Source: Gemmatimonadota bacterium (lineage in GTDB: Bacteria > Gemmatimonadota > Gemmatimonadetes > Longimicrobiales > Gaopeijiaceae). Taken from it: 59,253 nucleotides of DNA. Shown piece after piece: positions 24,283 to 34,182 of the stretch (its first letter is position 1; every line of letters starts with the position of its first letter). The stretch covers positions 1 through 59,253 of the forward strand of contig SLFU01000209.1 of the NCBI GenBank assembly GCA_007124095.1. Direction: 5' to 3'. A program made the translations under genes and the position numbers. A model generated the notes under the pieces. It had not been told where the DNA came from and made no database searches. It saw nothing but the letters and a program-made list of their open reading frames with translations.

Positions 24283-24627
24283 ATGCAGAATCTCATCATT
24301 CGGTTGTTCGTGAACGCGGTGGCGCTCTGGGTGGCGGCACAGCTGGTAGGGGGCATCGACCTTCCGGGGGAGTTCTGGCCGGTCCTCCTCGTCGCTGCCG
24401 TCTTCGGGATCGTTAACGCTCTGATTCGACCCGTGCTCATCCTCCTTTCCCTCCCCTTCCTCATCCTGACCCTGGGCCTCTTCACCCTCGTCATCAACGC
24501 CCTCATGCTGATGCTCACCGCGGCCCTGATAGCTCCCCTTTCGGTCGCGAGCTTCTGGTCAGCCCTCCTCGGGAGCATCCTCATCTCGCTGGTGAGCTTC
24601 CTCTTCTCCGTCCTCCTGCCTGAATAG
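24283..24627 (+). CDS. phage-holin-family / DUF360 membrane protein
   Basis: MQNLIIRLFVNAVALWVAAQLVGGIDL..FGIVNALIRPVLILLSLPFLILTLGLFTLVINALML. The track ORF extension 23758..24282 is antisense to addB. Confidence 0.8.
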   Translation: MQNLIIRLFVNAVALWVAAQLVGGIDLPGEFWPVLLVAAVFGIVNALIRPVLILLSLPFLILTLGLFTLVINALMLMLTAALIAPLSVASFWSALLGSILISLVSFLFSVLLPE

Positions 24628-24709
24628 GACTCCGGCTGACGGTCCCGACTCGGCCGGAACCGTGGCCGGGAAGCCGGCGCCCGGCACCGAGCCTTCCCCG
24701 ACGCGGAGA

Positions 24710-25081
24710 TCAGGATTGGCAGCCCCCGCAGCGCTCGGCCTCAGGGTAGACGAGGAGGCGCCCCGGCGCCAGAGGAGCGCCGCATCCCTCGCAGAAGCCG
24801 TACCGTCCGTTTTCAATCCGCTTCAGCGCGGAAATCAAGGCGCCGTGTCTCGCCCGCTCCCGCTCCTGGAGATTTCGGGTGAGGTGCTGATTCTGGAGGG
24901 CATCCATACGGGAAAGGCGCCCGACCGCCTGCTGGTCCAGCTCGACCGGGCGACTGGCCTCATCGGTGACCGACATGCTCTTCTCGAGGCGGCGCAGCTG
25001 CCGTTCCAACTCGGCGCGCAGCTCCTCCAGGAACTCGGCGGAAAGCTCGGGATGCTCCTTCGGAGGGATCCCCTCAGTCAC
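24710..25081 (-). CDS. TraR/DksA-family C4 zinc-finger protein
   Basis: A coiled-coil N-terminus is followed by LSRMDALQ and then CEGCGAPL...ERCGGC. Confidence 0.8.
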   Translation of the reverse strand: MTEGIPPKEHPELSAEFLEELRAELERQLRRLEKSMSVTDEASRPVELDQQAVGRLSRMDALQNQHLTRNLQERERARHGALISALKRIENGRYGFCEGCGAPLAPGRLLVYPEAERCGGCQS

Positions 25082-25104
25082 GCCGCCGCCTCCCGGACTG
25101 GAGC

Positions 25105-26358
25105 TCAGTAACGGGGGAGGCTCGGATCCACTTCTTCCTGCCAGCTCAGGATCCCACCGCGAAGATTCCAGACCTTCCGGAAACCGGCCTGCTGGAGCTG
25201 CTTCAGGGCCTTAGCGCTTCGCGTGCCCCCCTGGCAGTGCAGCACGATCTCTTCGGCCGAATCCAGCTCCGAGAGGCGTTCCGGGAGGGAATCGAGCGGG
25301 ATCAGCTCGGCTCCCAGGGGACCGAGGTTCACGATCTCCCACTCGTGCGGCTCCCGAACATCCAACATGCGGAGAGAGTCGCCGCGATCGAGGCGACCTT
25401 TCAGCTCGGTCGCGGAAATGGTCGGCACATCCTCGTCCGCCGCCTCCGGACCTTCCTCATAGGCAGGAACCCCACAGAACTCGAGGTAGTCAATGAGCTC
25501 GGTGACCGTGGGCTCATCTCCACACACCGGACAATCCGCGTTCTTCCGCAAGGTGAGGGTGCGCCACTCGAGGGCGAGGGCATCGAAGAGGAGGAGTCGG
25601 CCGATCAGCGGATCACCCTTCCCCAGGATCAGCTTGATCGTCTCGAGCGCCTGGAGAACGCCGATGATCCCCGGGAGCACCCCGAGCACCCCGCCCTCTG
25701 CGCAGCTCGGGACCATTCCGGGGGGTGGGGGTTCCCGGAAGAGGCATCGGTAGCAGGGGCCGTGGCGGGCGTCGAAGACCGAGACCTGCCCCTCGAACCG
25801 AAATATCGATCCGTAGACATTCGGCTTCCCGAGGAGGACACAGGCGTCGTTGACGAGATAACGGGTCGGGAAGTTGTCCGTCCCGTCCACCACCACGTCG
25901 TACGGCTCGAAGAGCTCGAGCGCGTTGTCGCTCGTAAGACGAAGCTCATGTCGATCGACCTGGACGTGAGGGTTCACGTCCTTCAACCGCTCCGTCGCGG
26001 AATCCAGCTTCGATCGGCCAATGTCCTTCGTTCCGTAGAGGATCTGACGCTGGAGGTTGGTGTGGTCGACCACGTCGTATTCCACGATCCCGATGCGTCC
26101 CACTCCGGCTGCAGCGAGGTAGAGCCCAAGGGGCGACCCCAAACCACCTGCACCCACCATCAGGACACTGGCGTCCTTCAGACGCCGCTGCCCCTCCATC
26201 CCGACCTCGGGCATGATGAGATGGCGGGAATACCGCTCGATCTCTTCGTTACTCAGTCCCGGCAACTCCCGGCCCGACCCGATTGCCCACGGTGGGGAAC
26301 CCCCGTTCTCGCTCGACGGACGAATCGGCGTCTCGGTCCCACTCTCGGATGCACTCAC
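25105..26358 (-). CDS. moeZ: MoeB/ThiF-type E1 adenylyltransferase fused to a rhodanese domain (MoeZ-type)
   Basis: YSRHLIMPEVGMEGQRRL..VLMVGAGGLGSPLGLYLAAAGVG..DHTNLQRQ..CYRC...CPVC. The C-terminal rhodanese carries the active-site loop CQGGTRS. Confidence 0.88.
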   Translation of the reverse strand: MSASESGTETPIRPSSENGGSPPWAIGSGRELPGLSNEEIERYSRHLIMPEVGMEGQRRLKDASVLMVGAGGLGSPLGLYLAAAGVGRIGIVEYDVVDHTNLQRQILYGTKDIGRSKLDSATERLKDVNPHVQVDRHELRLTSDNALELFEPYDVVVDGTDNFPTRYLVNDACVLLGKPNVYGSIFRFEGQVSVFDARHGPCYRCLFREPPPPGMVPSCAEGGVLGVLPGIIGVLQALETIKLILGKGDPLIGRLLLFDALALEWRTLTLRKNADCPVCGDEPTVTELIDYLEFCGVPAYEEGPEAADEDVPTISATELKGRLDRGDSLRMLDVREPHEWEIVNLGPLGAELIPLDSLPERLSELDSAEEIVLHCQGGTRSAKALKQLQQAGFRKVWNLRGGILSWQEEVDPSLPRY

Positions 26359-26373
26359 GAACCCTTTCTCACC

Positions 26374-27099
26374 TCAGATGTTGTGGAGCCCACACTCCAA
26401 TCGCACACTCCCGCGCCACCGCCCCGCCCGCTCGTGCTCACCAGGTTTGACCGGTGTCGTGAGCGGCGCGTCCCCTATGCTAGGATAACCCTTGTCGTGA
26501 AGGGGGTGATAGGGGAGGTCGTGACTCCGTATGAAATCCCATACCCGATCTCTCGTCCACCCTGCCAGCGGATTGATCTTGAGCCAGGTGCCCCGTTCGA
26601 GCACCGGAAGTTCCGCACGTGAGGGGGACTGATCTCGCCTCCGCCCCGTGATCCAACCATCCACCTCCCGCAGCGCCTTCCGCATCGGATCCTGTTTGGT
26701 CAGGCGATGATAGAGTTCGGCATCGCGCTCCCAGAGCCGAGGCCCATGGACCGCCTCGAAGGCCTCGCGCGAAGGCGCCGGCCGGTACACACGGAGATCG
26801 AGATCGTAGAGATCCCGCATCCGTTCGGCGTGCTCCAGGGTTTCCGGAAAGTGGTAGAGCGTGTCGATGAAGATGACCGGGAGGCGGATCCCCTCCTGGG
26901 ACAGGAGATGAATCAGAACCATCCCCCCAACCCCGAAGGTCGAGGAGAGGGCAACCCTTCCTTCCGGGAGGGCGTCGTCGGCCCAGCGAAGCGCCTCCCT
27001 CGGGTCCGCGCCGGCGAAGCGCCGATTTCGCGCGTCGACCTCTCTGGGACTCAGTTCCAACGCCGGGAGGGCAGTCGTATCGGTGGTCGTGCCCGTCAT
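26374..27099 (-). CDS. cysH: phosphoadenosine phosphosulfate (PAPS) reductase
   Basis: SSTFGVGGMVLIHLL..IFIDTLYHFPETL..KINPLAGWT.. with a C-terminal ECGLH. The CC..CxxC Fe-S motif of APS reductases is absent. GGAAGGAG lies upstream of the ATG. Confidence 0.9.
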   Translation of the reverse strand: MTGTTTDTTALPALELSPREVDARNRRFAGADPREALRWADDALPEGRVALSSTFGVGGMVLIHLLSQEGIRLPVIFIDTLYHFPETLEHAERMRDLYDLDLRVYRPAPSREAFEAVHGPRLWERDAELYHRLTKQDPMRKALREVDGWITGRRRDQSPSRAELPVLERGTWLKINPLAGWTRDRVWDFIRSHDLPYHPLHDKGYPSIGDAPLTTPVKPGEHERAGRWRGSVRLECGLHNI

Positions 27100-27164
27100 C
27101 TGTCTCCTTCCGTGAAGTTCCAGCGGTGGATGGCCAGAGGGCTCTCCACCTGATCCGTAGTACG

Positions 27165-27197
27165 AAAAAAGCCCCGACCTCTCTGCGAGGTCGGGGC
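27165..27197 (-). terminator. intrinsic terminator in the cysH leader (attenuator A)
   Basis: Minus strand: GCCCCGACCTC-gcaga-GAGGTCGGGGC followed by TTTTTT. It ends 65 nt upstream of the cysH ATG and starts 28 nt after the stop of the Cys-rich leader ORF. Confidence 0.8.
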
Positions 27198-27225
27198 CGA
27201 AGATTCAGCGCGATGTCTCTTGTGT

Positions 27226-27312
27226 CTACGCGCAACACCTCCCGGACCCACCCCGCAGGGGGATCTGACAGCAGCAGCACATAGCACAGCAAAGAGTGAA
27301 AGCGCGCTTCAT
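27226..27312 (-). CDS. Cys-codon-rich leader peptide (28 aa) of the cysH-moeZ operon
   Basis: Hand translation gives ATG AAG CGC GCT TTC ACT CTT TGC TGT GCT ATG TGC TGC TGC TGT CAG ATC CCC CTG CGG GGT GGG TCC GGG AGG TGT TGC GCG TAG, which is MKRAFTLCCAMCCCCQIPLRGGSGRCCA (8 Cys of 28). GAGGA lies just upstream. There is an alternative internal start at 27282. Confidence 0.55.
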   Translation of the reverse strand: MKRAFTLCCAMCCCCQIPLRGGSGRCCA

Positions 27313-27405
27313 TTTCCTCGTCGACTCCCAGGTCGTTGAAATCGGAGAGTGAGCAGACGAACCAGCTTCTCTCGGTGAGGAGTTTATCCGCATCCCCGGA
27401 TCAGG

Positions 27406-28878
27406 TCAAGTGTGCTCCCGAGCTTCCGAAATGAAGAGGGAGCATGGTTCCGGGCAAGGTACCCCCTGCGAAGGCCTCGCAGGCACTCCGAAGGAAGGTC
27501 GCCAAACCGGAGTGCGGAGGCAGCGATCCGCAGCGCAGACGGTCTGTGTGAGCCGCTCCAGCTCCGAGTCGGACATCCCCTCCAACCCGGCGTAGATCCC
27601 CGTTTGCCTTCGGGCAACCTCTTCGAAAGAGCGCGGGGAAAGGCCGCCCGTTCGACCCAGATACCAGTGCACCGGAGCCACCGGGTAGAGGTGCGCATAG
27701 ACCTCCCACACCTCCGCTTCGTCCAGCCCGGAGAAGCGCCATCCCCGGCGGAGGCCGGGAGCGGTCCGGACCGGCCGATGATCCCCGGTTTCCGTCGTGG
27801 CCCCGAGCCCGACAGCTCCGTCGGGGGTCTCCACCCTCCTCAGTTCCGATCGGGATCGCTCGCGGTCGAGATGATGCCGAATCTCGAAGCACCCTTCCTC
27901 GCCGGGTCGCACGAGCGTCTCGAGGAAGCTCCGACCTTGGGGGCCCGCGGACCGCAACCACTCCCCGAACGCTTCACGAGCCCTGGCGGAGACCGGAGGG
28001 GAGGAGGAGGAGTCCCGACCGGCTCCCGGAGTTTCCGGACGGGCTTCCCTTCGTGCCTCCTGCTCCACAAGCTGAAGGACCACCTCGACCATCGCGGGAT
28101 GGGGGCCGACCGGCTTTCCGTACCAGATGGTCGTCTCTCCGCGCCTTGTCCGCCCCCCGGTGAGTGCGAGATCGTCGGGAATTGTCGTCCCGGCATGCCA
28201 CCCTTCCGCGATGAAGAAGGGGACCACGATTACGTTGCGCACCCGTTCTCCGTCGAGAACCTCGGCCAGCCGTGGCTCCTGGTCCAGAAAGGCGGGAATC
28301 ACGCTCCCGTACGATCCCTCACGCCGCAGCGCCTCGACGATCGCCCGCGTGGTCCTCCCGGAATCCGGGTGCCGGTTCGTCCCGTGCCCGGCCACGACAA
28401 GAGTCGCTCCCGCCTCTTCCTCCGCGGAGAGGGACGCCGCTTCCCGGGCCCGCTCCATAACGACCTGGCTCATCCGTGGATGAGTGCCCACTGCGGGACA
28501 CTCCCTGATTCGCAGATCAGGCCGCGCAACGAGGGTGCGGTCCAACGCCAGCTCTCTCGGGACCACTCGGTCCGTGAAGTACCCTGTGCTCGTGAACACC
28601 GGAACGACGAAGACCTCGGAGCGCTCGACGAGATGGAAAGCCTGATGCAGCTGCGGCTCCTCCTTCCAAAACGCCACCCGGACCTCCCCGAAGCTCCCCC
28701 TCGCCCGGAGGCGTCGAGCCAGCTCGTGCACCGGCCGGGCCGAGGCCGGACTCAGGTGGGATCCATGACCCACCAGAAGGACGCAGCACTCGAGCCGATC
28801 GGAGAGGGGTCCGGGACCTTCGGTAATGGACGGGTCGATCCTTGACAAGGTGGAATTACCTCCTCTTCTTTTACTCAT
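27406..28878 (-). CDS. double CbiX (sirohydrochlorin chelatase) domains fused to a DR2241-like Fe-S domain
   Basis: There are two CbiX-type repeats: VLLVGHGSH..VVPVFTSTGYF and LVVAGHGTNRH..VVPFFIAEGWH. The C-terminal ~230 aa carry a Cys cluster (VCAADRC .. CPEPC) and resemble DR2241-family proteins from memory. Confidence 0.75.
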   Translation of the reverse strand: MSKRRGGNSTLSRIDPSITEGPGPLSDRLECCVLLVGHGSHLSPASARPVHELARRLRARGSFGEVRVAFWKEEPQLHQAFHLVERSEVFVVPVFTSTGYFTDRVVPRELALDRTLVARPDLRIRECPAVGTHPRMSQVVMERAREAASLSAEEEAGATLVVAGHGTNRHPDSGRTTRAIVEALRREGSYGSVIPAFLDQEPRLAEVLDGERVRNVIVVPFFIAEGWHAGTTIPDDLALTGGRTRRGETTIWYGKPVGPHPAMVEVVLQLVEQEARREARPETPGAGRDSSSSPPVSARAREAFGEWLRSAGPQGRSFLETLVRPGEEGCFEIRHHLDRERSRSELRRVETPDGAVGLGATTETGDHRPVRTAPGLRRGWRFSGLDEAEVWEVYAHLYPVAPVHWYLGRTGGLSPRSFEEVARRQTGIYAGLEGMSDSELERLTQTVCAADRCLRTPVWRPSFGVPARPSQGVPCPEPCSLFISEAREHT

Positions 28879-29043
28879 CGGTTCGAGGGTTGGGTCGAAC
28901 GGGTCTCGGTGAACACCGTACCCCCTCGATAAAGGTCACCTATCGCCCTGCCAAGTCGAGCTTGCGACGTTAGAAGCCCTGGCCCTCTCCGAGGCCGGGG
29001 CTCTTTTCATGGAATCCGACTCAACGTAGGAGCGACCACCCGC

Positions 29044-29916
29044 ATGGGCACCGTATTCCTGGTGGGGGCCGGACCGGGCGACCCGGACCTGCTCACCCTC
29101 CGGGCGCATCGCCTTCTCCAAAGAGCCGACGCCGTCGTCTACGACGCGCTCGTGAACTCGGAAATTCTGGAGCTCGCCCCGACCCGCGCCGGTCGATTCG
29201 ATGTCGGCCGGCGAAAAGGGGAGAAGCGGATCGCCCAGGGAGACGTGAACGATCTCCTCATCCATCTCTCGGGATCCCACGAGGTGGTCGTCCGGCTCAA
29301 GGGCGGGGATCCCTTCGTCTTCGGCCGCGGAGGGGAGGAGGCGCTCGCACTCCGGGCGGCTGGGGTGCCCTTCGAGGTCGTGCCCGGAGTAAGCGCGGGA
29401 ATCGGGGCGCTGGCATACGCAGGCATCCCTCTGACCCATCGCGGTGTCGCCTCGTCAGCCACCTTCCTGACCGGGCATCGAGTCCTGCCCGCAACAGGAG
29501 ATCGGGAAGGAGTATCCGCCGTCGGAAGTGAGGACCGGACCCTCGTCATCTTCATGGGGCTCTCGCGGCTCGAGGAGATCGCCTCGGAACTGATCCGTGG
29601 CGGGCGCTCTCCGAAAACCCCCGCGGCCATCGTGGAATGGGGGACCTACCGGGAACAGCGAACCGTGACCGGCGATCTCCGCACCCTCCCCGAACGCGTC
29701 CGCACAGCCGGCATCTCCGGTCCCTCCCTGATCGTCGTGGGCGAAGTCGTGCGTCTGCGCAGCGAAGTCCGTTGGTATAGCGAAGGAGCTGAGCAGGCAG
29801 ATTCGCCGGAGCGATCATCGGACCCGCCCGGACGGAAGGAGCCCGGCCAAGGGAGTCGCCCCGCGGAGGGGGACTGGACAGTCGTCCCCACTCCGGGAAG
29901 CGCCTTCGGCGACTGA
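29044..29916 (+). CDS. cobA: uroporphyrinogen-III C-methyltransferase (SUMT)
   Basis: GTVFLVGAGPGDPDLLTLRA..ADAVVYDALV..VVRLKGGDPFVFGRGGEE..VPGVSA. A ~45-aa low-complexity C-terminal tail follows. Confidence 0.9.
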   Translation: MGTVFLVGAGPGDPDLLTLRAHRLLQRADAVVYDALVNSEILELAPTRAGRFDVGRRKGEKRIAQGDVNDLLIHLSGSHEVVVRLKGGDPFVFGRGGEEALALRAAGVPFEVVPGVSAGIGALAYAGIPLTHRGVASSATFLTGHRVLPATGDREGVSAVGSEDRTLVIFMGLSRLEEIASELIRGGRSPKTPAAIVEWGTYREQRTVTGDLRTLPERVRTAGISGPSLIVVGEVVRLRSEVRWYSEGAEQADSPERSSDPPGRKEPGQGSRPAEGDWTVVPTPGSAFGD

Positions 29917-29961
29917 ATCCCCTCCCCACCCGGCCAGGATTGATCGAGCGGAGCGGTAGCT

Positions 29962-30207
29962 CTATGGGGGGGTCAGCTCGAAGTGGGTGTAGTTCTTGGC
30001 AATATACGAGGTCCACTCCTCCGGCACGTCCGTGTCGGGAAAGATCGCCTGGACAGGGCACTCCGGCTCACAGGCCCCACAGTCGATGCACTCGTCCGGA
30101 TGGATGTAGAACTGATCGTCGGATTCGTAGATGCAATCCACCGGACATACGTCGACACAGCTCGCATCCTTGGTGTCTATGCACGGCTCGGTAATGATGT
30201 ATGTCAT
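29962..30207 (-). CDS. 7Fe-type ferredoxin (3Fe-4S plus 4Fe-4S)
   Basis: [25 protein letters not shown] ... [12 protein letters not shown]. Confidence 0.9.
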
Positions 30208-30212
30208 GGGAT

Positions 30213-30791
30213 CTATTTTTTCCTTTTCCCCGAAGGGAATTCGGCCTCATTCAGGACCCGTCCGGGCCCCTTCGCGCCTCCGGTTACACCACCGGAATCC
30301 CGACGTGCCCCCCGAACGTGTCCAGTGGGAGGGTCGGCGCGGGGGATCTCCCGGACACTGCCTCCGGGTTCCGGATCCCGGCACCAGGCCCGGATCCGCG
30401 GAGGTTCGGAGCCCCGGGTGAACCCCGCGATCACCCATACCGTGTGGGGCCAGAGCTCCATGAACCGTCGATCCACGGGAGAGGGTACCGGTTCGCTATC
30501 GGGGTGGGTGTGGTAGAACCCCACCACCTCCTCTTCGGATTCACGGAGGGACTTCTCGACCTCCAGGAGGCGAAGCGGATCGATCATGAATCGATTCCGT
30601 CGCCTCTCGGGAGGCTCGGTGTTGGGCGTGGGGACGATCGAGGTCACAAGCACGACCCCCTCCGCACTTCTCCGACCGACGAGGAGGCCGCACGCCTCCT
30701 CCGCGGCCGCAGCGCGAGCCTCGGCGACGACTGCGTCCCCCACCTCCTCGAACCAGGCCCAGCCCGTCACACGCGAGGGAGTGCGGATCAA
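30213..30791 (-). CDS. JAMM/MPN+ (Mov34) metallopeptidase
   Basis: EACGLLVG ... [17 protein letters not shown] matches the E..HxHx7Sx2D motif. I propose the TTG start at 30791, which lies 4 nt after the carrier-protein stop and has GGGAG upstream. The track start at 30893 overlaps the carrier gene. Confidence 0.8.
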
Positions 30792-30795
30792 TCGC

Positions 30796-31077
30796 TCACT
30801 CCCGGCCCCCTGCGATCGAGGGAACGATCGAAACCTCGTCTCCTTCACTGACTGGGGTCTCGAGCTCCTTCTCGTAACGGATGTCGGTGCCATTCACGAA
30901 GACGTTCAGGAACTGGCGAAGCTCGCCCCCCTCCTCCGTGATCCGCGCCAGCAGATCGGGATTCTCACGTCCTACGTGAGCCAGCACGTCACGCACCGTC
31001 GCGCCCTCCGCTTCCAGCTCCCCACGACCGTGGGTCAGCTTCCTCAGGGCACTCGGCACCCGGACCGTCACACTCAT
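30796..31077 (-). CDS. MoaD/ThiS-family sulfur-carrier protein ending ...AGG-RE
   Basis: MSVTVRVPSALRKLT..FLNVFVNGTDI..GDEVSIVPSIAGGRE. The AAGGAG element favours the third ATG (31077), but 31083 and 31086 are also possible. Confidence 0.8.
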   Translation of the reverse strand: MSVTVRVPSALRKLTHGRGELEAEGATVRDVLAHVGRENPDLLARITEEGGELRQFLNVFVNGTDIRYEKELETPVSEGDEVSIVPSIAGGRE

Positions 31078-31149
31078 CGACATCATCTCCTTGCCGCATC
31101 TCACGAGTCTCCGGGGGCCCGGCGATATCCAGGGCATTCCCCGCACTTC

Positions 31150-32433
31150 TCATCCAACAGGCTCCTGCTGGCCCGCCTCGGCGAGCCGAACCACCTCCGA
31201 AAGCCTCGGGTCGATCGGTTCACCCAGCTCGAAGGTCGCTCGAGCCGCATTTGGGGTCTTCAGGCCGTTGCCCGTGATACAGAGCACGGTCGGCCCACCC
31301 TTCGCGAATCGACCCTCTCGCGCCAGCCGGGCCGCTCCGGCTACGACCACCCCGCCGGCCGTCTCCGTGAAGACCCCTTCGAGGCTGGCCAGCAACCGGA
31401 TGCCCTCCACGATCTCGTCGTCCGAGACCGCCTCGCCCCAGCCTCCGCTGTCGAGCATGGACCGGAGGGCGAAGGGGCCGTCTGCGGGGTTCCCGATCGC
31501 AAGCGAGCGAGCGATGGTGTCGGGCTTCCGGACCGGCTGGACACGACTTTCCCCCGCGTGAAGAGCATTGACGATGGGCGCACATCCCGAGGCCTGGGTC
31601 CCGAAGAGCCGCGGGGTCCGGGACTCAGCCACGAGCCCCACCTTCTCGAGCTCCTTGAAGCTCTTCTCCAGCTTCGTGATCAGGGAGCCGCCCGCCATCG
31701 GAGCCACGACATTCGCCGGCAGAGACCAGCCGAGCTGTTCGACGATCTCGAATCCGACCGTCTTCGAGCCCTCCGCATAATAGGGGCGCAGGTTCACATT
31801 CACGATCCCCCACCCGAACCGATCCGCGACCTCGGCACAGAGCCGATTCACATCATCGTATACGCCCTTGATGCGCACCAGTCGGGCTCCATGGACACCG
31901 GTGGCGACCACCTTCTCAGGTTCCAGGTCCTCCGGAATGAAGATCCACGCTTCCAATCCCGCAGACGCGGCCTGCGCCGCCACGGAGTTGGCAAGGTTAC
32001 CGGTGGAGGCACACCCCACCACAGAGATGCCGAACTCATGTGCGCGCTGGAGGGCAATGGCGACCACCCGGTCCTTGAAGGACTGGGTTGGGTGATTCGA
32101 AGAATCCGCCTTTATCCAGAGGTCCTCGATGCCGAGAGCGTCCCCGAGGCGCGGGGCCGGCAGGAGAGGGGTCCAACCAACCGCGTGTCCCCCCTCGGGA
32201 TCCCGCTCGATGGGAAGGAGCTCGCGGTAGCGCCAGAGATTGGTGGGCCGGCTGCGGATCAACTCCGGAGAAAGGGTGCCGTGGAGCCCCTCCAGGTCGT
32301 AGTCTACTTCGAGAGGTCCGAAACACTCCTCGCACACATGAAAGGGCCCCGCCTCCGTCACCGTCCCGCAGAGGCGACATCGAAGGGTGTCGAGGGTGCT
32401 GGAGGCCACCGGTCCGGTCTTCGTCTGTTTCAT
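31150..32433 (-). CDS. threonine-synthase-like PLP enzyme with an N-terminal zinc ribbon
   Basis: CRLCGTVTEAGPFHVCEECFGPLEV is a Cys4 ribbon. NHPTQSFKDRVV carries the PLP lysine. The tryptophan-synthase-beta fold is evident throughout. Confidence 0.85.
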   Translation of the reverse strand: MKQTKTGPVASSTLDTLRCRLCGTVTEAGPFHVCEECFGPLEVDYDLEGLHGTLSPELIRSRPTNLWRYRELLPIERDPEGGHAVGWTPLLPAPRLGDALGIEDLWIKADSSNHPTQSFKDRVVAIALQRAHEFGISVVGCASTGNLANSVAAQAASAGLEAWIFIPEDLEPEKVVATGVHGARLVRIKGVYDDVNRLCAEVADRFGWGIVNVNLRPYYAEGSKTVGFEIVEQLGWSLPANVVAPMAGGSLITKLEKSFKELEKVGLVAESRTPRLFGTQASGCAPIVNALHAGESRVQPVRKPDTIARSLAIGNPADGPFALRSMLDSGGWGEAVSDDEIVEGIRLLASLEGVFTETAGGVVVAGAARLAREGRFAKGGPTVLCITGNGLKTPNAARATFELGEPIDPRLSEVVRLAEAGQQEPVG

Positions 32434-32500
32434 GTTGAGTACCCGTCTTCCACAGGGGAGCCTTGATCTCGGCAGCCCGCGCTGACGCCGCCGCTCCCGT

Positions 32501-32541
32501 AAACAAAAAAGCCCAGACCTCCATCGGGAGGAGGCCGGGGC
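32501..32541 (-). terminator. intrinsic terminator in the leader of the thrC-like operon (attenuator B)
   Basis: Minus strand: GCCCCGGCCTCC-tcccgat-GGAGGTCTGGGC followed by TTTTTTGTTT. It ends 67 nt upstream of the ATG at 32433. Confidence 0.8.
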
Positions 32542-32572
32542 TCGTTCAGCTCGTCGGATCCGTTGCTTGCTG

Positions 32573-32671
32573 CTAAGGCCCTCCGGACACGACCGTCCCC
32601 GCCCTGACCTCCTCGAGCGAGGAAGCCATCATGGAACAGCCGCACATGCTGATTGTGGCGGTTGCGGTCAT
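32573..32671 (-). CDS. Cys/Met-codon leader peptide of the thrC-like/moaD/JAMM operon
   Basis: Hand translation gives ATG ACC GCA ACC GCC ACA ATC AGC ATG TGC GGC TGT TCC ATG ATG GCT TCC TCG CTC GAG GAG GTC AGG GCG GGG ACG GTC GTG TCC GGA GGG CCT TAG, which is MTATATISMCGCSMMASSLEEVRAGTVVSGGP. The inner start at 32647 gives MCGCSMM... I see no strong SD, so the start is uncertain. Confidence 0.45.
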   Translation of the reverse strand: MTATATISMCGCSMMASSLEEVRAGTVVSGGP

Positions 32672-32958
32672 GTTGACGCTCGTGTCTGGCTTCTTTCGGA
32701 CTACAGCTCTCACGACCCGTGGGACGGACGGCCGCAGAAAGCACGGAACGAAACGCTATGCAACCACCCACCGCCAGTCAAGCCCCACCGGATTCGTTCG
32801 CCCCTCACGGAGGGAGGCCCGGCCGAAGATGATGACGATAATGAGCCTTGACAGCCCTCTCCATCCCGACCGAGCATACGGTACATCCTGAAGACATGCT
32901 GAAAGCGGGTCCAAGCGCCGCCAAGCCTTCGTTCCACTCTCCACGAGGTCAAATCACT

Positions 32959-34182
32959 GTGAACCGATTCCATCCCCTCCTGACCGTCCTCGTCCTTTTC
33001 GGATTGGCGGCGTGCGACGCCTCATCGGCCGACGGGCCCGAACCCGCCAACAGCGCCCCTTCCGCCGTCGAGTTCGAGGTCTGGGCGGCGGACCAGAACC
33101 TCAACCAGGTTTACATTCTGGGGCCAGACGGGGAGGTCCTCCGCACCATTGATGCCTCGGAGCTCGGAGGAGCCGATCGTCCGCACATGCTCTGGGGCGT
33201 CCCGGGCGACGGCTACGTCTACAGCGCGAACACAGTTTCGGCCTCCGTTTCCATACTCGACCGACGGTCTGGAGAAGTGGTGGAGGTGATCGAAGAAGTG
33301 GGCCAGGCTCCCCACGCGGCGCAGCCCAATCCGACCCGCCCCGACCGAATCTACGTCTTCAACATCGCCCCTCAGGAATCCGACGCCGACGGAATGCCCG
33401 ACCGGGGGGAGACGATCGCCGAAATCGTTCGGACGGATGGCGCGGACGGACCGAGCTGGGAGCTCACGCGCTTCCTGGACCTCAGGGCGGATCCCGCGCT
33501 GGCCGACTCGGATCTCTTTCCCAGCCGCCGGCCGGTGTGTGGAGGGTTTTCCCCGGATGGGAGCCACCTCCTGGTGACCCTCTTCAATGGAGGACTGGCC
33601 GTGGTCGACCTGGACGGATGGAGCGTTTCGCGAGCGTGGGGGAGTGACGAGATCGCGGAGCACGGATGCGGCTTCGCCTCGTCCTTGGATGGGGAGGAAA
33701 TCTACGTGACCGCCGGAGGCATGCACGAGTCATGGATGTACGTCTTCGACGTGGGGGGAGCCGAGCCCCAGCTGGTTGCGACGCATGACCTCTCCGGAGC
33801 GGGCCAGGACGCGCACGGCGTCTACGTCGATCCGGTGCGAGACGAGCTCTGGGTCGTGCACCGGGCGAGCGACAACATCACCATCCATCCGCTCGCGTCG
33901 ATCCAGACGGAGGGCCACGACTTCGAGACCATCGACTTCGTGGGGTCCGCGCCGGACCTCGTGGCCTTCTCCCCCGACGCGAGCCGGGCCTACCTGACCT
34001 TGCGCGGGCCGAATCCGGCGCCCACCATCCCGCACGCCACCGTAGGCGAGACTCCCGGAGTGACGATCATCGACGTTCCGGGCCGGGAGGTCCTCGAGAT
34101 CGTGCCCCTCGGAGACCAGATCGAAGCCGATTTCCACGGAATCTTCATCCCGGAGGCGAACCACGGCATCGGAGGCTCCTGA
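32959..34182 (+). CDS. beta-propeller (YVTN/YncE-like) lipoprotein
   Basis: LLTVLVLFGLAAC is a lipobox. The rest shows a repeated strand-rich pattern typical of propeller repeats (VYILGPDGEVLRTID, VYSANTVSASVSILD, LLVTLFNGGLAVVDL, IYVTAGG, LWVVHRASDNITIH). I prefer the GTG start at 32959, with 32896 as an alternative. Confidence 0.7.
   Translation: MNRFHPLLTVLVLFGLAACDASSADGPEPANSAPSAVEFEVWAADQNLNQVYILGPDGEVLRTIDASELGGADRPHMLWGVPGDGYVYSANTVSASVSILDRRSGEVVEVIEEVGQAPHAAQPNPTRPDRIYVFNIAPQESDADGMPDRGETIAEIVRTDGADGPSWELTRFLDLRADPALADSDLFPSRRPVCGGFSPDGSHLLVTLFNGGLAVVDLDGWSVSRAWGSDEIAEHGCGFASSLDGEEIYVTAGGMHESWMYVFDVGGAEPQLVATHDLSGAGQDAHGVYVDPVRDELWVVHRASDNITIHPLASIQTEGHDFETIDFVGSAPDLVAFSPDASRAYLTLRGPNPAPTIPHATVGETPGVTIIDVPGREVLEIVPLGDQIEADFHGIFIPEANHGIGGS

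Follow-up and report, generated by a model that had tools for sequence, protein, structure and literature searches.

What does a bacterium make with a threonine synthase (ThrC)-like enzyme whose gene adjoins that of a small sulfur carrier protein, and which signal controls the operon that the two genes share? The question is posed by an island of about 8 kb (approximately 24710-32680) in a stretch of DNA from a Gemmatimonadota bacterium (Longimicrobiales; Gaopeijiaceae); the whole stretch analyzed, referred to here as the window, comprises 59,253 nucleotides (nt), positions 1-59,253 of the forward strand of contig SLFU01000209.1 (assembly GCA_007124095.1). Our analysis indicates that the island very probably encodes a complete protein-thiocarboxylate route to homocysteine of the type published for Streptomyces albulus, in which the ThrC-like enzyme is MetM and the carrier MetO, together with part of the sulfide supply. 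Both operons of the island begin with a leader containing a short open reading frame (ORF), and it is fairly likely that these leaders act by ribosome-mediated transcription attenuation. The two parts combined, a MetM/MetO route under leader attenuation, form in our judgment the likely explanation of the locus.

ORF listing and Pfam and NCBIfam profile searches place both operons on the minus strand. Operon 1 consists of leader A, cysH, a gene for an E1 enzyme with ThiF and rhodanese domains, and a DksA/TraR zinc finger gene; operon 2 consists of leader B, the ThrC-like gene, the carrier gene, a JAMM metallopeptidase gene, and a ferredoxin gene. A CbiX-DR2241 fusion gene and a divergent cobA sit between the two. 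A first-pass annotation of the sequence had described the region as a thiocarboxylate sulfur-incorporation set in two leader-headed operons with siroheme genes between them; the nine genes that it named are all present with the domains that it gave, and the domains, terminators, and short ORFs bear out the arrangement. Relatives are designated by code, with G for genomes (G000 is the window's own; G027, G127, and G226 are relatives), L for loci, and C for contigs of the window's genome, the assembly of which is 95.8% complete. Close homologs of the window genes belong, by their source labels, to Gemmatimonadota or Longimicrobiales. The four parts of the proposed route are the following.

31150-32433, minus strand: MetM-like ThrC-family pyridoxal phosphate (PLP) enzyme (PALP 229 bits)
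30796-31077, minus strand: MetO-like sulfur carrier, 93 amino acids, ThiS/MoaD fold (ThiS 59 bits)
30213-30791, minus strand: Mec/HcyD-like JAMM metallopeptidase (Prok-JAB 71.6 bits)
25105-26358, minus strand: MoeZ-type E1 (ThiF 273 bits, Rhodanese 57 bits)

The genome encodes eight PALP-fold genes, including a canonical ThrC, CysK (416 bits), and a CBS-like protein. The housekeeping ThrC (contig C151) scores 546 bits against PRK08197; the window enzyme, 37% identical to it, scores 300.3 bits against a model cut-off of 303 and passes the cut-off of NCBIfam TIGR00260 (thrC). It is not a PLP enzyme of the CysK/CysM type, matching ThrC models and only weakly those of the cysKM family. Best matches in 151 sampled genomes of the phylum are bimodal, with an orthologue of at least 49% identity in 41 and only a ThrC (32-41%) in the rest. 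In a maximum-likelihood tree a MetM-like clade, comprising 34 rows and no fewer than 14 phyla, stands apart from the ThrC paralogues of the same genomes with support of 99/98 and long branches.

Gene neighborhoods were counted in 30 Gemmatimonadota loci and 80 loci from other phyla (no Streptomyces among the latter). The carrier gene adjoins the ThrC-like gene in 28 of the 30 and 76 of the 80, and an arrangement that recurs in 104 of 110 loci is more than chance. A MoeZ-like E1 lies within the fetched locus in 22/80 of the other-phyla loci and a JAMM gene in 10/80. The closest relatives have the orders metM-metO-JAMM-moeZ (G027) and metM-metO-JAMM-cysH..cobA (G127). MetM/MetO-type loci number more than 597 in one scan and extend to Acidobacteriota, Planctomycetota, Verrucomicrobiota, Nitrospirota, Actinomycetota, and others. 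In the cultured actinomycete Nonomuraea gerenzanensis a SAM-I riboswitch is followed by a metM-like gene (53% identity) and a metO-like gene (48%); the matches listed in a search seeded with the Nonomuraea protein are dominated by Streptosporangiales.

Proteins of the MetM-like family have a Cys4 zinc ribbon at the N-terminus (CxxC...CxxC, residues 17-40); the family alignment shows no variation at C19, C22, and C34 and almost none at C37. The ribbon is missing from solved ThrC structures and from the ThrC of the same genome, and it may serve as a carrier-docking module. No solved structure of MetM was found; the nearest chains are the ThrCs 1UIM, 2ZSJ, 6CGQ, and 2D1F, which cover residues 62-416 only.

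Two variants of the metM locus were seen among relatives. Five Nitrospirota loci (L052, L071, L083, L100, and L104) have the order metM-metO-thrC, with a housekeeping-type ThrC paralogue (36-41% identical) directly downstream. Four Gemmatimonadota loci (L004, L006, L007, and L010) have a gene of approximately 950 nt between metM and metO; in L006, L007, and L010 roughly 1 kb separates metM from the SAM-II riboswitch upstream, implying a further operon gene, and no SAM-II was found in L004.

The carrier ends in ...SIAGGRE, with two residues (RE) past the glycine pair (GG); its best start is at 31077, with AAGGAG 9 nt 5' of the ATG. Its nearest solved relatives are of the CysO type (4N6E_B, E 1e-16; 3DWG_C, E 4e-13). 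The JAMM gene begins with TTG 4 nt past the carrier stop, with GGGAG 7 nt upstream of the TTG. Across 103 loci, JAMM genes are associated with carriers that have a C-terminal extension (12/50 with an extension, 1/53 without; Fisher p = 7e-4), and the only Gemmatimonadota loci in which an extension (RE, R, and AGEP) coincides with an adjacent JAMM gene are those of the window, G027, and G127. This link supports a processing of the carrier like that by Mec or HcyD, as far as genome comparison can indicate it.

MoaD-like and ThiS carriers are encoded separately in the genome, the former beside moaE, moeA, and moaA (contig C2) and the latter beside thiG and thiE (contig C159), so the window carrier is predicted to be a third, dedicated carrier. 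The E1 has the rhodanese active-site loop HCQGGTRS and scores 463 against PRK08762 (cut-off 449) and 509 against the MoeZ model PRK07878, below the cut-off of 647. As no other ThiF-family gene occurs in the assembly, the E1 probably serves all three carriers, being shared with ThiS and MoaD in thiamin and molybdopterin synthesis rather than dedicated to one.

Carriers of unusual form were observed elsewhere. In Acidobacteriaceae (L056, L063, L080, L092, and L107) MetO has a conserved Cys-rich tail past the GG (...CCSYCGQEEC.CGD), and there is no JAMM gene in the fetched loci. Eight loci (L057, L062, L064, L070, L075, L088, L097, and L098) encode a carrier with an 80-residue domain (...TNIRSASVSE..GL.ALEL.G...) joined to its C-terminus, and the carrier of L045 (Actinomycetota) is joined directly to E1; a JAMM gene lies nearby in all nine.

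Two unrelated RNAs that sense S-adenosylmethionine (SAM) precede this one gene family, which argues strongly that its product feeds methionine and SAM synthesis. SAM-II lies upstream on the same strand in 15/20 Gemmatimonadota metM loci, and SAM-I lies directly upstream in 6/11 metM loci from other phyla. Of 41 related loci scanned, 25 have one or the other upstream of the orthologue; among the remaining 16, three have a Met/Cys leader ORF and a terminator instead. SAM riboswitches in this position point to homocysteine, rather than cysteine or threonine, as the product, an indication that the first-pass annotation missed.

Sulfide for such a route would come from sulfate, and the island holds part of the machinery, listed here with the genes that end each operon.

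26374-27099, minus strand: CysH, of the 3'-phosphoadenosine 5'-phosphosulfate (PAPS) reductase type (PAPS_reduct 162 bits)
27406-28878, minus strand: CbiX-CbiX-DR2241-Fer4_23 fusion (Pfam), putative sirohydrochlorin ferrochelatase
29044-29916, plus strand: CobA/SirA uroporphyrinogen-III C-methyltransferase (TIGR01469 294 bits, cut-off 185)
24710-25081, minus strand: DksA/TraR C4 zinc finger, last gene of operon 1 (PF01258 29.1 bits)
29962-30207, minus strand: 7Fe (3Fe-4S + 4Fe-4S) FdxA-type ferredoxin, last gene of operon 2 (FdxA_Actino 115.8 bits, cut-off 125)

CysH scores above the cut-offs of PRK02090 (239 bits, cut-off 154) and TIGR00434 (222, cut-off 165) and below that of the adenosine 5'-phosphosulfate (APS) reductase model TIGR02055. 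Its single Cys is the catalytic one, in ECGLH; there are no Fe-S Cys pairs, and the protein is therefore a PAPS-type reductase without an Fe-S cluster. The fusion protein is a full-length homolog of Deinococcus radiodurans DR2241 (PDB 2JH3, residues 33-488, E 6e-39), and CobA with two CbiX domains and this similarity represents the siroheme branch with a putative chelatase. A cobA gene is linked to cysH or metM in G127, L045, and L037 too.

The first-pass annotation saw no sulfite reductase, ATP sulfurylase, or APS kinase in the window, and rightly so; cysJ and cysI are on contig C134 (CysI 784 bits), and cysD and a cysN-cysC fusion are on contig C128. No Sat-type sulfurylase was found in the genome. 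With cysK on contig C84, the predicted genes for sulfate activation and reduction form a complete but scattered set. A candidate homoserine kinase gene, thrB, is on contig C175 (167.8 bits against a cut-off of 168.25). The genome also carries a metY-metX pair for the O-acetylhomoserine route (contig C34:14680-17097) and two further PLP enzymes of Cys/Met metabolism, so that the MetM route is by gene content a second homocysteine route and not the sole one. Rfam gave no match in the upstream regions of metY, cysJ, cysD, or cysK, and neither a riboswitch (Rfam, E <= 1) nor a Cys/Met leader (inspection) was detected upstream of metY-metX.

From these families and neighborhoods we infer the following activities and source of sulfur. 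CysD and CysN-CysC would make PAPS, the window CysH would reduce it to sulfite, and CysJI would reduce sulfite to sulfide, with siroheme provided via the window CobA and the CbiX-DR2241 chelatase. The JAMM enzyme would trim RE from the carrier and expose its C-terminal GG, after which the MoeZ-type E1 would adenylate the carrier and its rhodanese domain make the thiocarboxylate. The MetM-like enzyme would then swap the phosphate of O-phosphohomoserine for the carrier sulfur; following an S-to-N acyl shift, the JAMM enzyme may release homocysteine as well.

The second part of the question concerns control. Rfam scans of the whole window at gathering thresholds, and of 24500-33000 at E <= 5, gave no riboswitch and no family on either leader, the matches being a merely terminator-like NsiR1 match at the hairpin of leader A and chance miRNA matches. 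In place of a methionine/SAM-responsive riboswitch, the window has Cys/Met leader ORFs with the following elements.

~27400-27100, minus strand: leader A, operon 1
27381-27409, minus strand: promoter candidate of operon 1, sigma-70-like (TTGACC-17-TAAACT; a consensus match only)
27226-27312, minus strand: leader ORF A, Cys-rich, with GAGGA 4 nt 5' of the ATG
27237-27258, minus strand: antiterminator segment of leader A, codons 19-25 of leader ORF A
27160-27198, minus strand: terminator of leader A, a 12-bp GC-rich stem then UUUUUU, with the hairpin at 27198-27165
~32680-32434, minus strand: leader B, operon 2
32573-32647, minus strand: leader ORF B, with an alternative in-frame ATG at 32671
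32600-32615, minus strand: antiterminator segment of leader B, codons 11-17 of leader ORF B
32505-32541, minus strand: terminator of leader B, a hairpin then a U-run

Leader ORF A (MKRAFTLCCAMCCCCQ...) reads MKRAFTLCCAMCCCCQIPLRGGSGRCCA, with eight Cys in 28 codons. The terminator, approximately 65 nt 5' of the cysH start, has a predicted energy of -26.4 kcal/mol; the antiterminator in codons 19-25, CUGCGGGGUGGGUCCGGGAGGU, is predicted by RNAduplex to form a duplex of -23.4 kcal/mol with the terminator 5' arm. When truncated, co-transcriptional transcripts are folded with a ribosome occupying Cys codons 9-15, codons 19-25 pair with the terminator 5' arm; when the ribosome is left out, this segment folds back on the region of the Cys codons. 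Scanning the genome for at least four Cys codons in eight gave 48 hits, of which leader A is the only intergenic one with a start codon and a terminator; the others lie inside longer ORFs or have no start or terminator. The predicted features are those of a classical attenuator, that is, a short ORF with a codon cluster, a Shine-Dalgarno sequence, an intrinsic terminator, and an exclusive antiterminator.

Leader ORF B, which reads MCGCSMMASSLEEVRAGTVVSGGP (it starts MCGCSMM...), lies between divergently oriented genes. A paralogue precedes cysJ-cysI (contig C134:21593-21667; L115:194-268) and was found by inspecting the region upstream of cysJ, the poly-Cys threshold being too strict for this type. 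The cysJI leader encodes MCACCMMAPCMKGVGAECIVSGGP and also has a terminator; the two leaders are 86% identical over 95 nt with ORFs of equal length, and a CCUCC/GGAGG pairing in the stem of one is CCUCU/AGAGG in the other, a compensatory change. An orthologue of leader B lies upstream of metM in G226, which belongs to a different genus of the same family. In all three B-type copies, ORF codons 11-17/18 are complementary to the terminator 5' arm, and the antiterminator, 5' arm, and 3' arm co-vary, with preservation of the reading frame and of the ATG-TG(C/T) start. Predicted energies for the window, cysJI, and G226 copies, respectively, are -27.5, -24.4, and -29.6 kcal/mol for the antiterminator duplex and -21.9, -18.7, and -20.8 kcal/mol for the terminator. 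To judge from this co-variation, an RNA switch of the B type is well supported; which codons it would sense is uncertain, since the ORF in G226 contains a single Cys codon and a single internal Met codon. The third leader, at cysJI, suggests a multi-operon cysteine-attenuation regulon in this genome.

Leader ORFs also stand before metM in relatives. In G027, SAM-II is followed by a leader ORF, MGCHACTMCMCMCCMRAF..., which carries MGCHACTMCMCMCCM, and then by a terminator; in G127 there is a leader ORF (MCCCCGG...) and then a terminator. Four Acidobacteriota metM loci have an ORF of the form MAMCC[HRP][TN]M[AG]M... with a terminator and no SAM riboswitch. When two of these (L037 and L065) were folded, placing a ribosome on Cys codons 4-5 kept the antiterminator pairing intact, and placing it at the stop codon removed that pairing. 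An ORF upstream of metM in L053 was rejected as a leader because it lies inside the upstream gene. Small ORFs were also noticed 260-285 nt upstream of metM in Gemmatimonadota L018 and L025 (MQGIVQCICMFITTTT... and MEGIIQCTCMCITTAQ...); that of L018 is between SAM-II and metM, a layout resembling the tandem of G027.

In the attenuation that we infer, smooth passage of the ribosome through the leader ORF would cover the antiterminator within it, and the terminator would form; a ribosome stalled at the early Cys (and Met) codons would not reach the antiterminator, which could then pair with the 5' arm of the terminator and allow readthrough. Both window operons and cysJI would be governed in this way.

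Other products can be imagined for the same genes. Synthesis of cysteine from O-phosphoserine by the ThrC-like enzyme and its carrier, in the manner of CysM and CysO, would suit the Cys-rich leaders, the paralogy of leader B with the cysJI leader, and co-regulation with cysH and cysJI, as it would the CysO-type structures nearest to the carrier; we hold it improbable, however, given that SAM riboswitches before orthologues in 25/41 loci mark methionine/SAM metabolism, that several leaders contain Met codons, and that the ThrC family acts on O-phosphohomoserine, from which published MetM is summarized as making homocysteine. The genome, moreover, already has CysK at 416 bits. Molybdopterin synthesis, the alternative that the first-pass annotation had itself set against its reading, fares worse. 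A role of carrier and E1 in the synthesis of molybdopterin or thiamin, with the ThrC-like gene a second threonine synthase placed there by chance, would agree with an E1 that is the sole ThiF-family gene and with a TIGR00260 score above cut-off, but it is largely refuted by the separate MoaD and ThiS genes in their own neighborhoods, by the presence of a canonical ThrC, by the adjacency of the ThrC-like and carrier genes in 104/110 loci from many phyla, and by the SAM riboswitches on orthologues. A thio-cofactor, natural product, or other small molecule as recipient of the sulfur is just as remote: carriers do transfer sulfur in several secondary pathways, and the deposition of the best PDB match of this one, 4N6E_B, names nothing more specific than a "ThiS/MoaD family protein," but the family is widely distributed in primary metabolism under SAM riboswitch control, and no biosynthetic-cluster genes lie nearby.

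A homocysteine route under leader attenuation has points to its disadvantage, and several of them would favor a different view of the leaders, namely that the short ORFs are not sensors and that ordinary terminators, or protein- or ligand-binding RNA switches with incidental frames, account for the region. Full-length minimum free energy folds of leader A, whether free or with a ribosome masked at the codons or at the stop, always keep the terminator, so that the attenuator model relies on truncated co-transcriptional folds. The terminator of leader A is downstream of the cbiX-DR2241 gene and could simply end it; the G226 copy of leader B has, as noted, a single Cys codon; and the window sequence was found in soda-lake and salt-lake DNA metagenomes only, with no RNA runs containing it. 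This view is nonetheless unlikely, as leader A combines eight Cys in 28 codons with a Shine-Dalgarno sequence and is the only such hit in the genome, B-type frames and starts are preserved while the arms co-vary, leader B has no upstream gene to terminate, and independent Cys/Met-rich ORFs with terminators precede metM in G027, G127, and four Acidobacteriota. Three further points bear on the route rather than on the leaders. The metY-metX pair makes the MetM route redundant and its physiological role less clear; it is not obviously logical that Cys starvation should switch on a homocysteine route; and relatedness to S. albulus MetM (A0A059WBP2) and MetO (A0A059W7F4) is judged through the Nonomuraea proxy and through shared architecture and regulation.

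If the MetM/MetO route under leader attenuation is accepted, a wider scheme is possible, which we put forward tentatively and would not yet call probable. Paralogous attenuators would read the charging of Cys-tRNA and, via Met codons, of Met-tRNA, and would jointly control cysJI, cysH-moeZ, and the MetM/MetO operon as a "sulfur ribulon"; in this lineage they would have taken the place of SAM-II, the riboswitch by which most of the phylum controls metM, the G027 tandem being an intermediate and the Acidobacteriota MAMCC.TMAM leader an independent development. No methionine-sensing leader-peptide attenuator, the kind that the Met codons of this scheme call for, was found in the literature searched. 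One operon family found under SAM-I, SAM-II, Cys/Met leader peptides, or two of these in tandem would be a natural case of RNA-sensor replacement, and cysteine-sensing attenuation would be known outside Actinobacteria and Rhodobacterales as well, at three or more sulfur operons of a single genome. Through the pathway assignment itself, a gene that would be annotated as "threonine synthase" becomes part of a second route to homocysteine.

The last genes of the two operons were dropped as conserved members of the system, both being missing from the G027 and G127 loci. The ferredoxin, with the Cys pattern C9, C17, C21-P ... C40xxC43xxC46xxxC50-P, is not conserved in either locus, and no DksA/TraR gene adjoining moeZ or cysH was found there; in the window the DksA/TraR gene starts 23 nt past the moeZ stop and scores below the cut-offs of DksA-like NCBIfam models. 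A GC-rich hairpin followed by CTTTTC was also noticed at 28975-29012 (plus strand), approximately 35 nt 5' of cobA, in the 165-nt divergent region between cobA and cbiX-DR2241, where no leader ORF was seen.

Several known systems resemble the island in part. The CysO/CysM/Mec+/MoeZ system of Mycobacterium tuberculosis likewise has an E1 with rhodanese, a carrier thiocarboxylate, a PLP enzyme acting on a phosphorylated precursor, and a JAMM hydrolase, and the window carrier resembles its CysO-type carrier (3DWG_C, E 4e-13). Unlike CysM, the window PLP enzyme belongs to the ThrC family, and the SAM riboswitches of its orthologues suggest homocysteine as the product. Wolinella succinogenes reportedly has an HcyS/HcyD/HcyF/MetY homocysteine pathway (Krishnamoorthy and Begley 2011). 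In that pathway an extra C-terminal carrier residue is cut off by a JAMM enzyme, the thiocarboxylate is used for homocysteine, and there is a link to sulfate-reduction genes, all as proposed here; MetY acts there on O-acetylhomoserine, whereas the window has a ThrC-family enzyme that presumably uses O-phosphohomoserine.

Leaders with Cys codons are known from other phyla. Cys-codon leader ORFs have been predicted in Actinobacteria (PMC1262725); mycobacterial polycysteine leader ORFs act at the level of translation and constitute a "ribulon" (Canestrari et al. 2020, bioRxiv 10.1101/834739), and in Rhodobacterales a Cys-codon upstream ORF with a terminator precedes cysS (uORFC-8-2, PMC8632094). 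The window leaders share with the mycobacterial and Rhodobacterales elements a short Cys-codon ORF upstream of cysteine or sulfur genes, with the mycobacterial "ribulon" the grouping of several operons under one signal, and with the Rhodobacterales motif an intrinsic terminator at the end. The mycobacterial ORFs are leaderless and sequester the ribosome-binding site, whereas those of the window are led by Shine-Dalgarno sequences and have terminator/antiterminator pairs; leader A, with its promoter-like site, Shine-Dalgarno sequence, and terminator, is not of the leaderless class. Leaders of the window type precede cysH-moeZ, cysJI, and the metM operon, several mix Met with Cys codons, and they occur in Gemmatimonadota and Acidobacteriota.

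The nearest system is MetM/MetO/Mec/MoeZ of S. albulus, which converts O-phosphohomoserine to homocysteine (Hasebe et al. 2024, Appl Environ Microbiol 90:e0124724, as summarized in PMC13759103) and is listed with experimental evidence for all four proteins in GapMind 2026 (PMC13759103; bioRxiv 10.1101/2024.10.14.618325). In that summary MetM is a ThrC homolog often misannotated as threonine synthase, MetO the carrier, and Mec the hydrolase that matures MetO (PMC13759103); the S. albulus metM is stated to lie behind a SAM riboswitch (PMC12172450). The first-pass annotation had offered a ThrC-family enzyme in place of CysM or MetY as the difference from known systems; the family assignment stands, and the difference is not new in view of this published pathway. 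As described in those sources, the S. albulus system shares with the window a ThrC-family enzyme distinct from ThrC, an adjacent GG carrier, a JAMM enzyme, and a MoeZ-type E1 with rhodanese, and its SAM riboswitch matches those before the loci orthologous to the window's. The window differs from the system so described in packing the four parts into 8 kb with cysH and siroheme genes, in having Cys/Met leader-ORF attenuators in place of the SAM riboswitch, and in the 7Fe ferredoxin and DksA/TraR genes appended to its operons. The enzymology is thus already known from the published pathway, and regulation is the less ordinary part: what would go beyond the published account, on the gene arrangements compared here, is an island that gathers the four parts together with cysH and siroheme genes, the placement of the one shared E1 under a poly-Cys attenuator, and the replacement of the SAM riboswitch by a leader-ORF family that also stands at cysJI.

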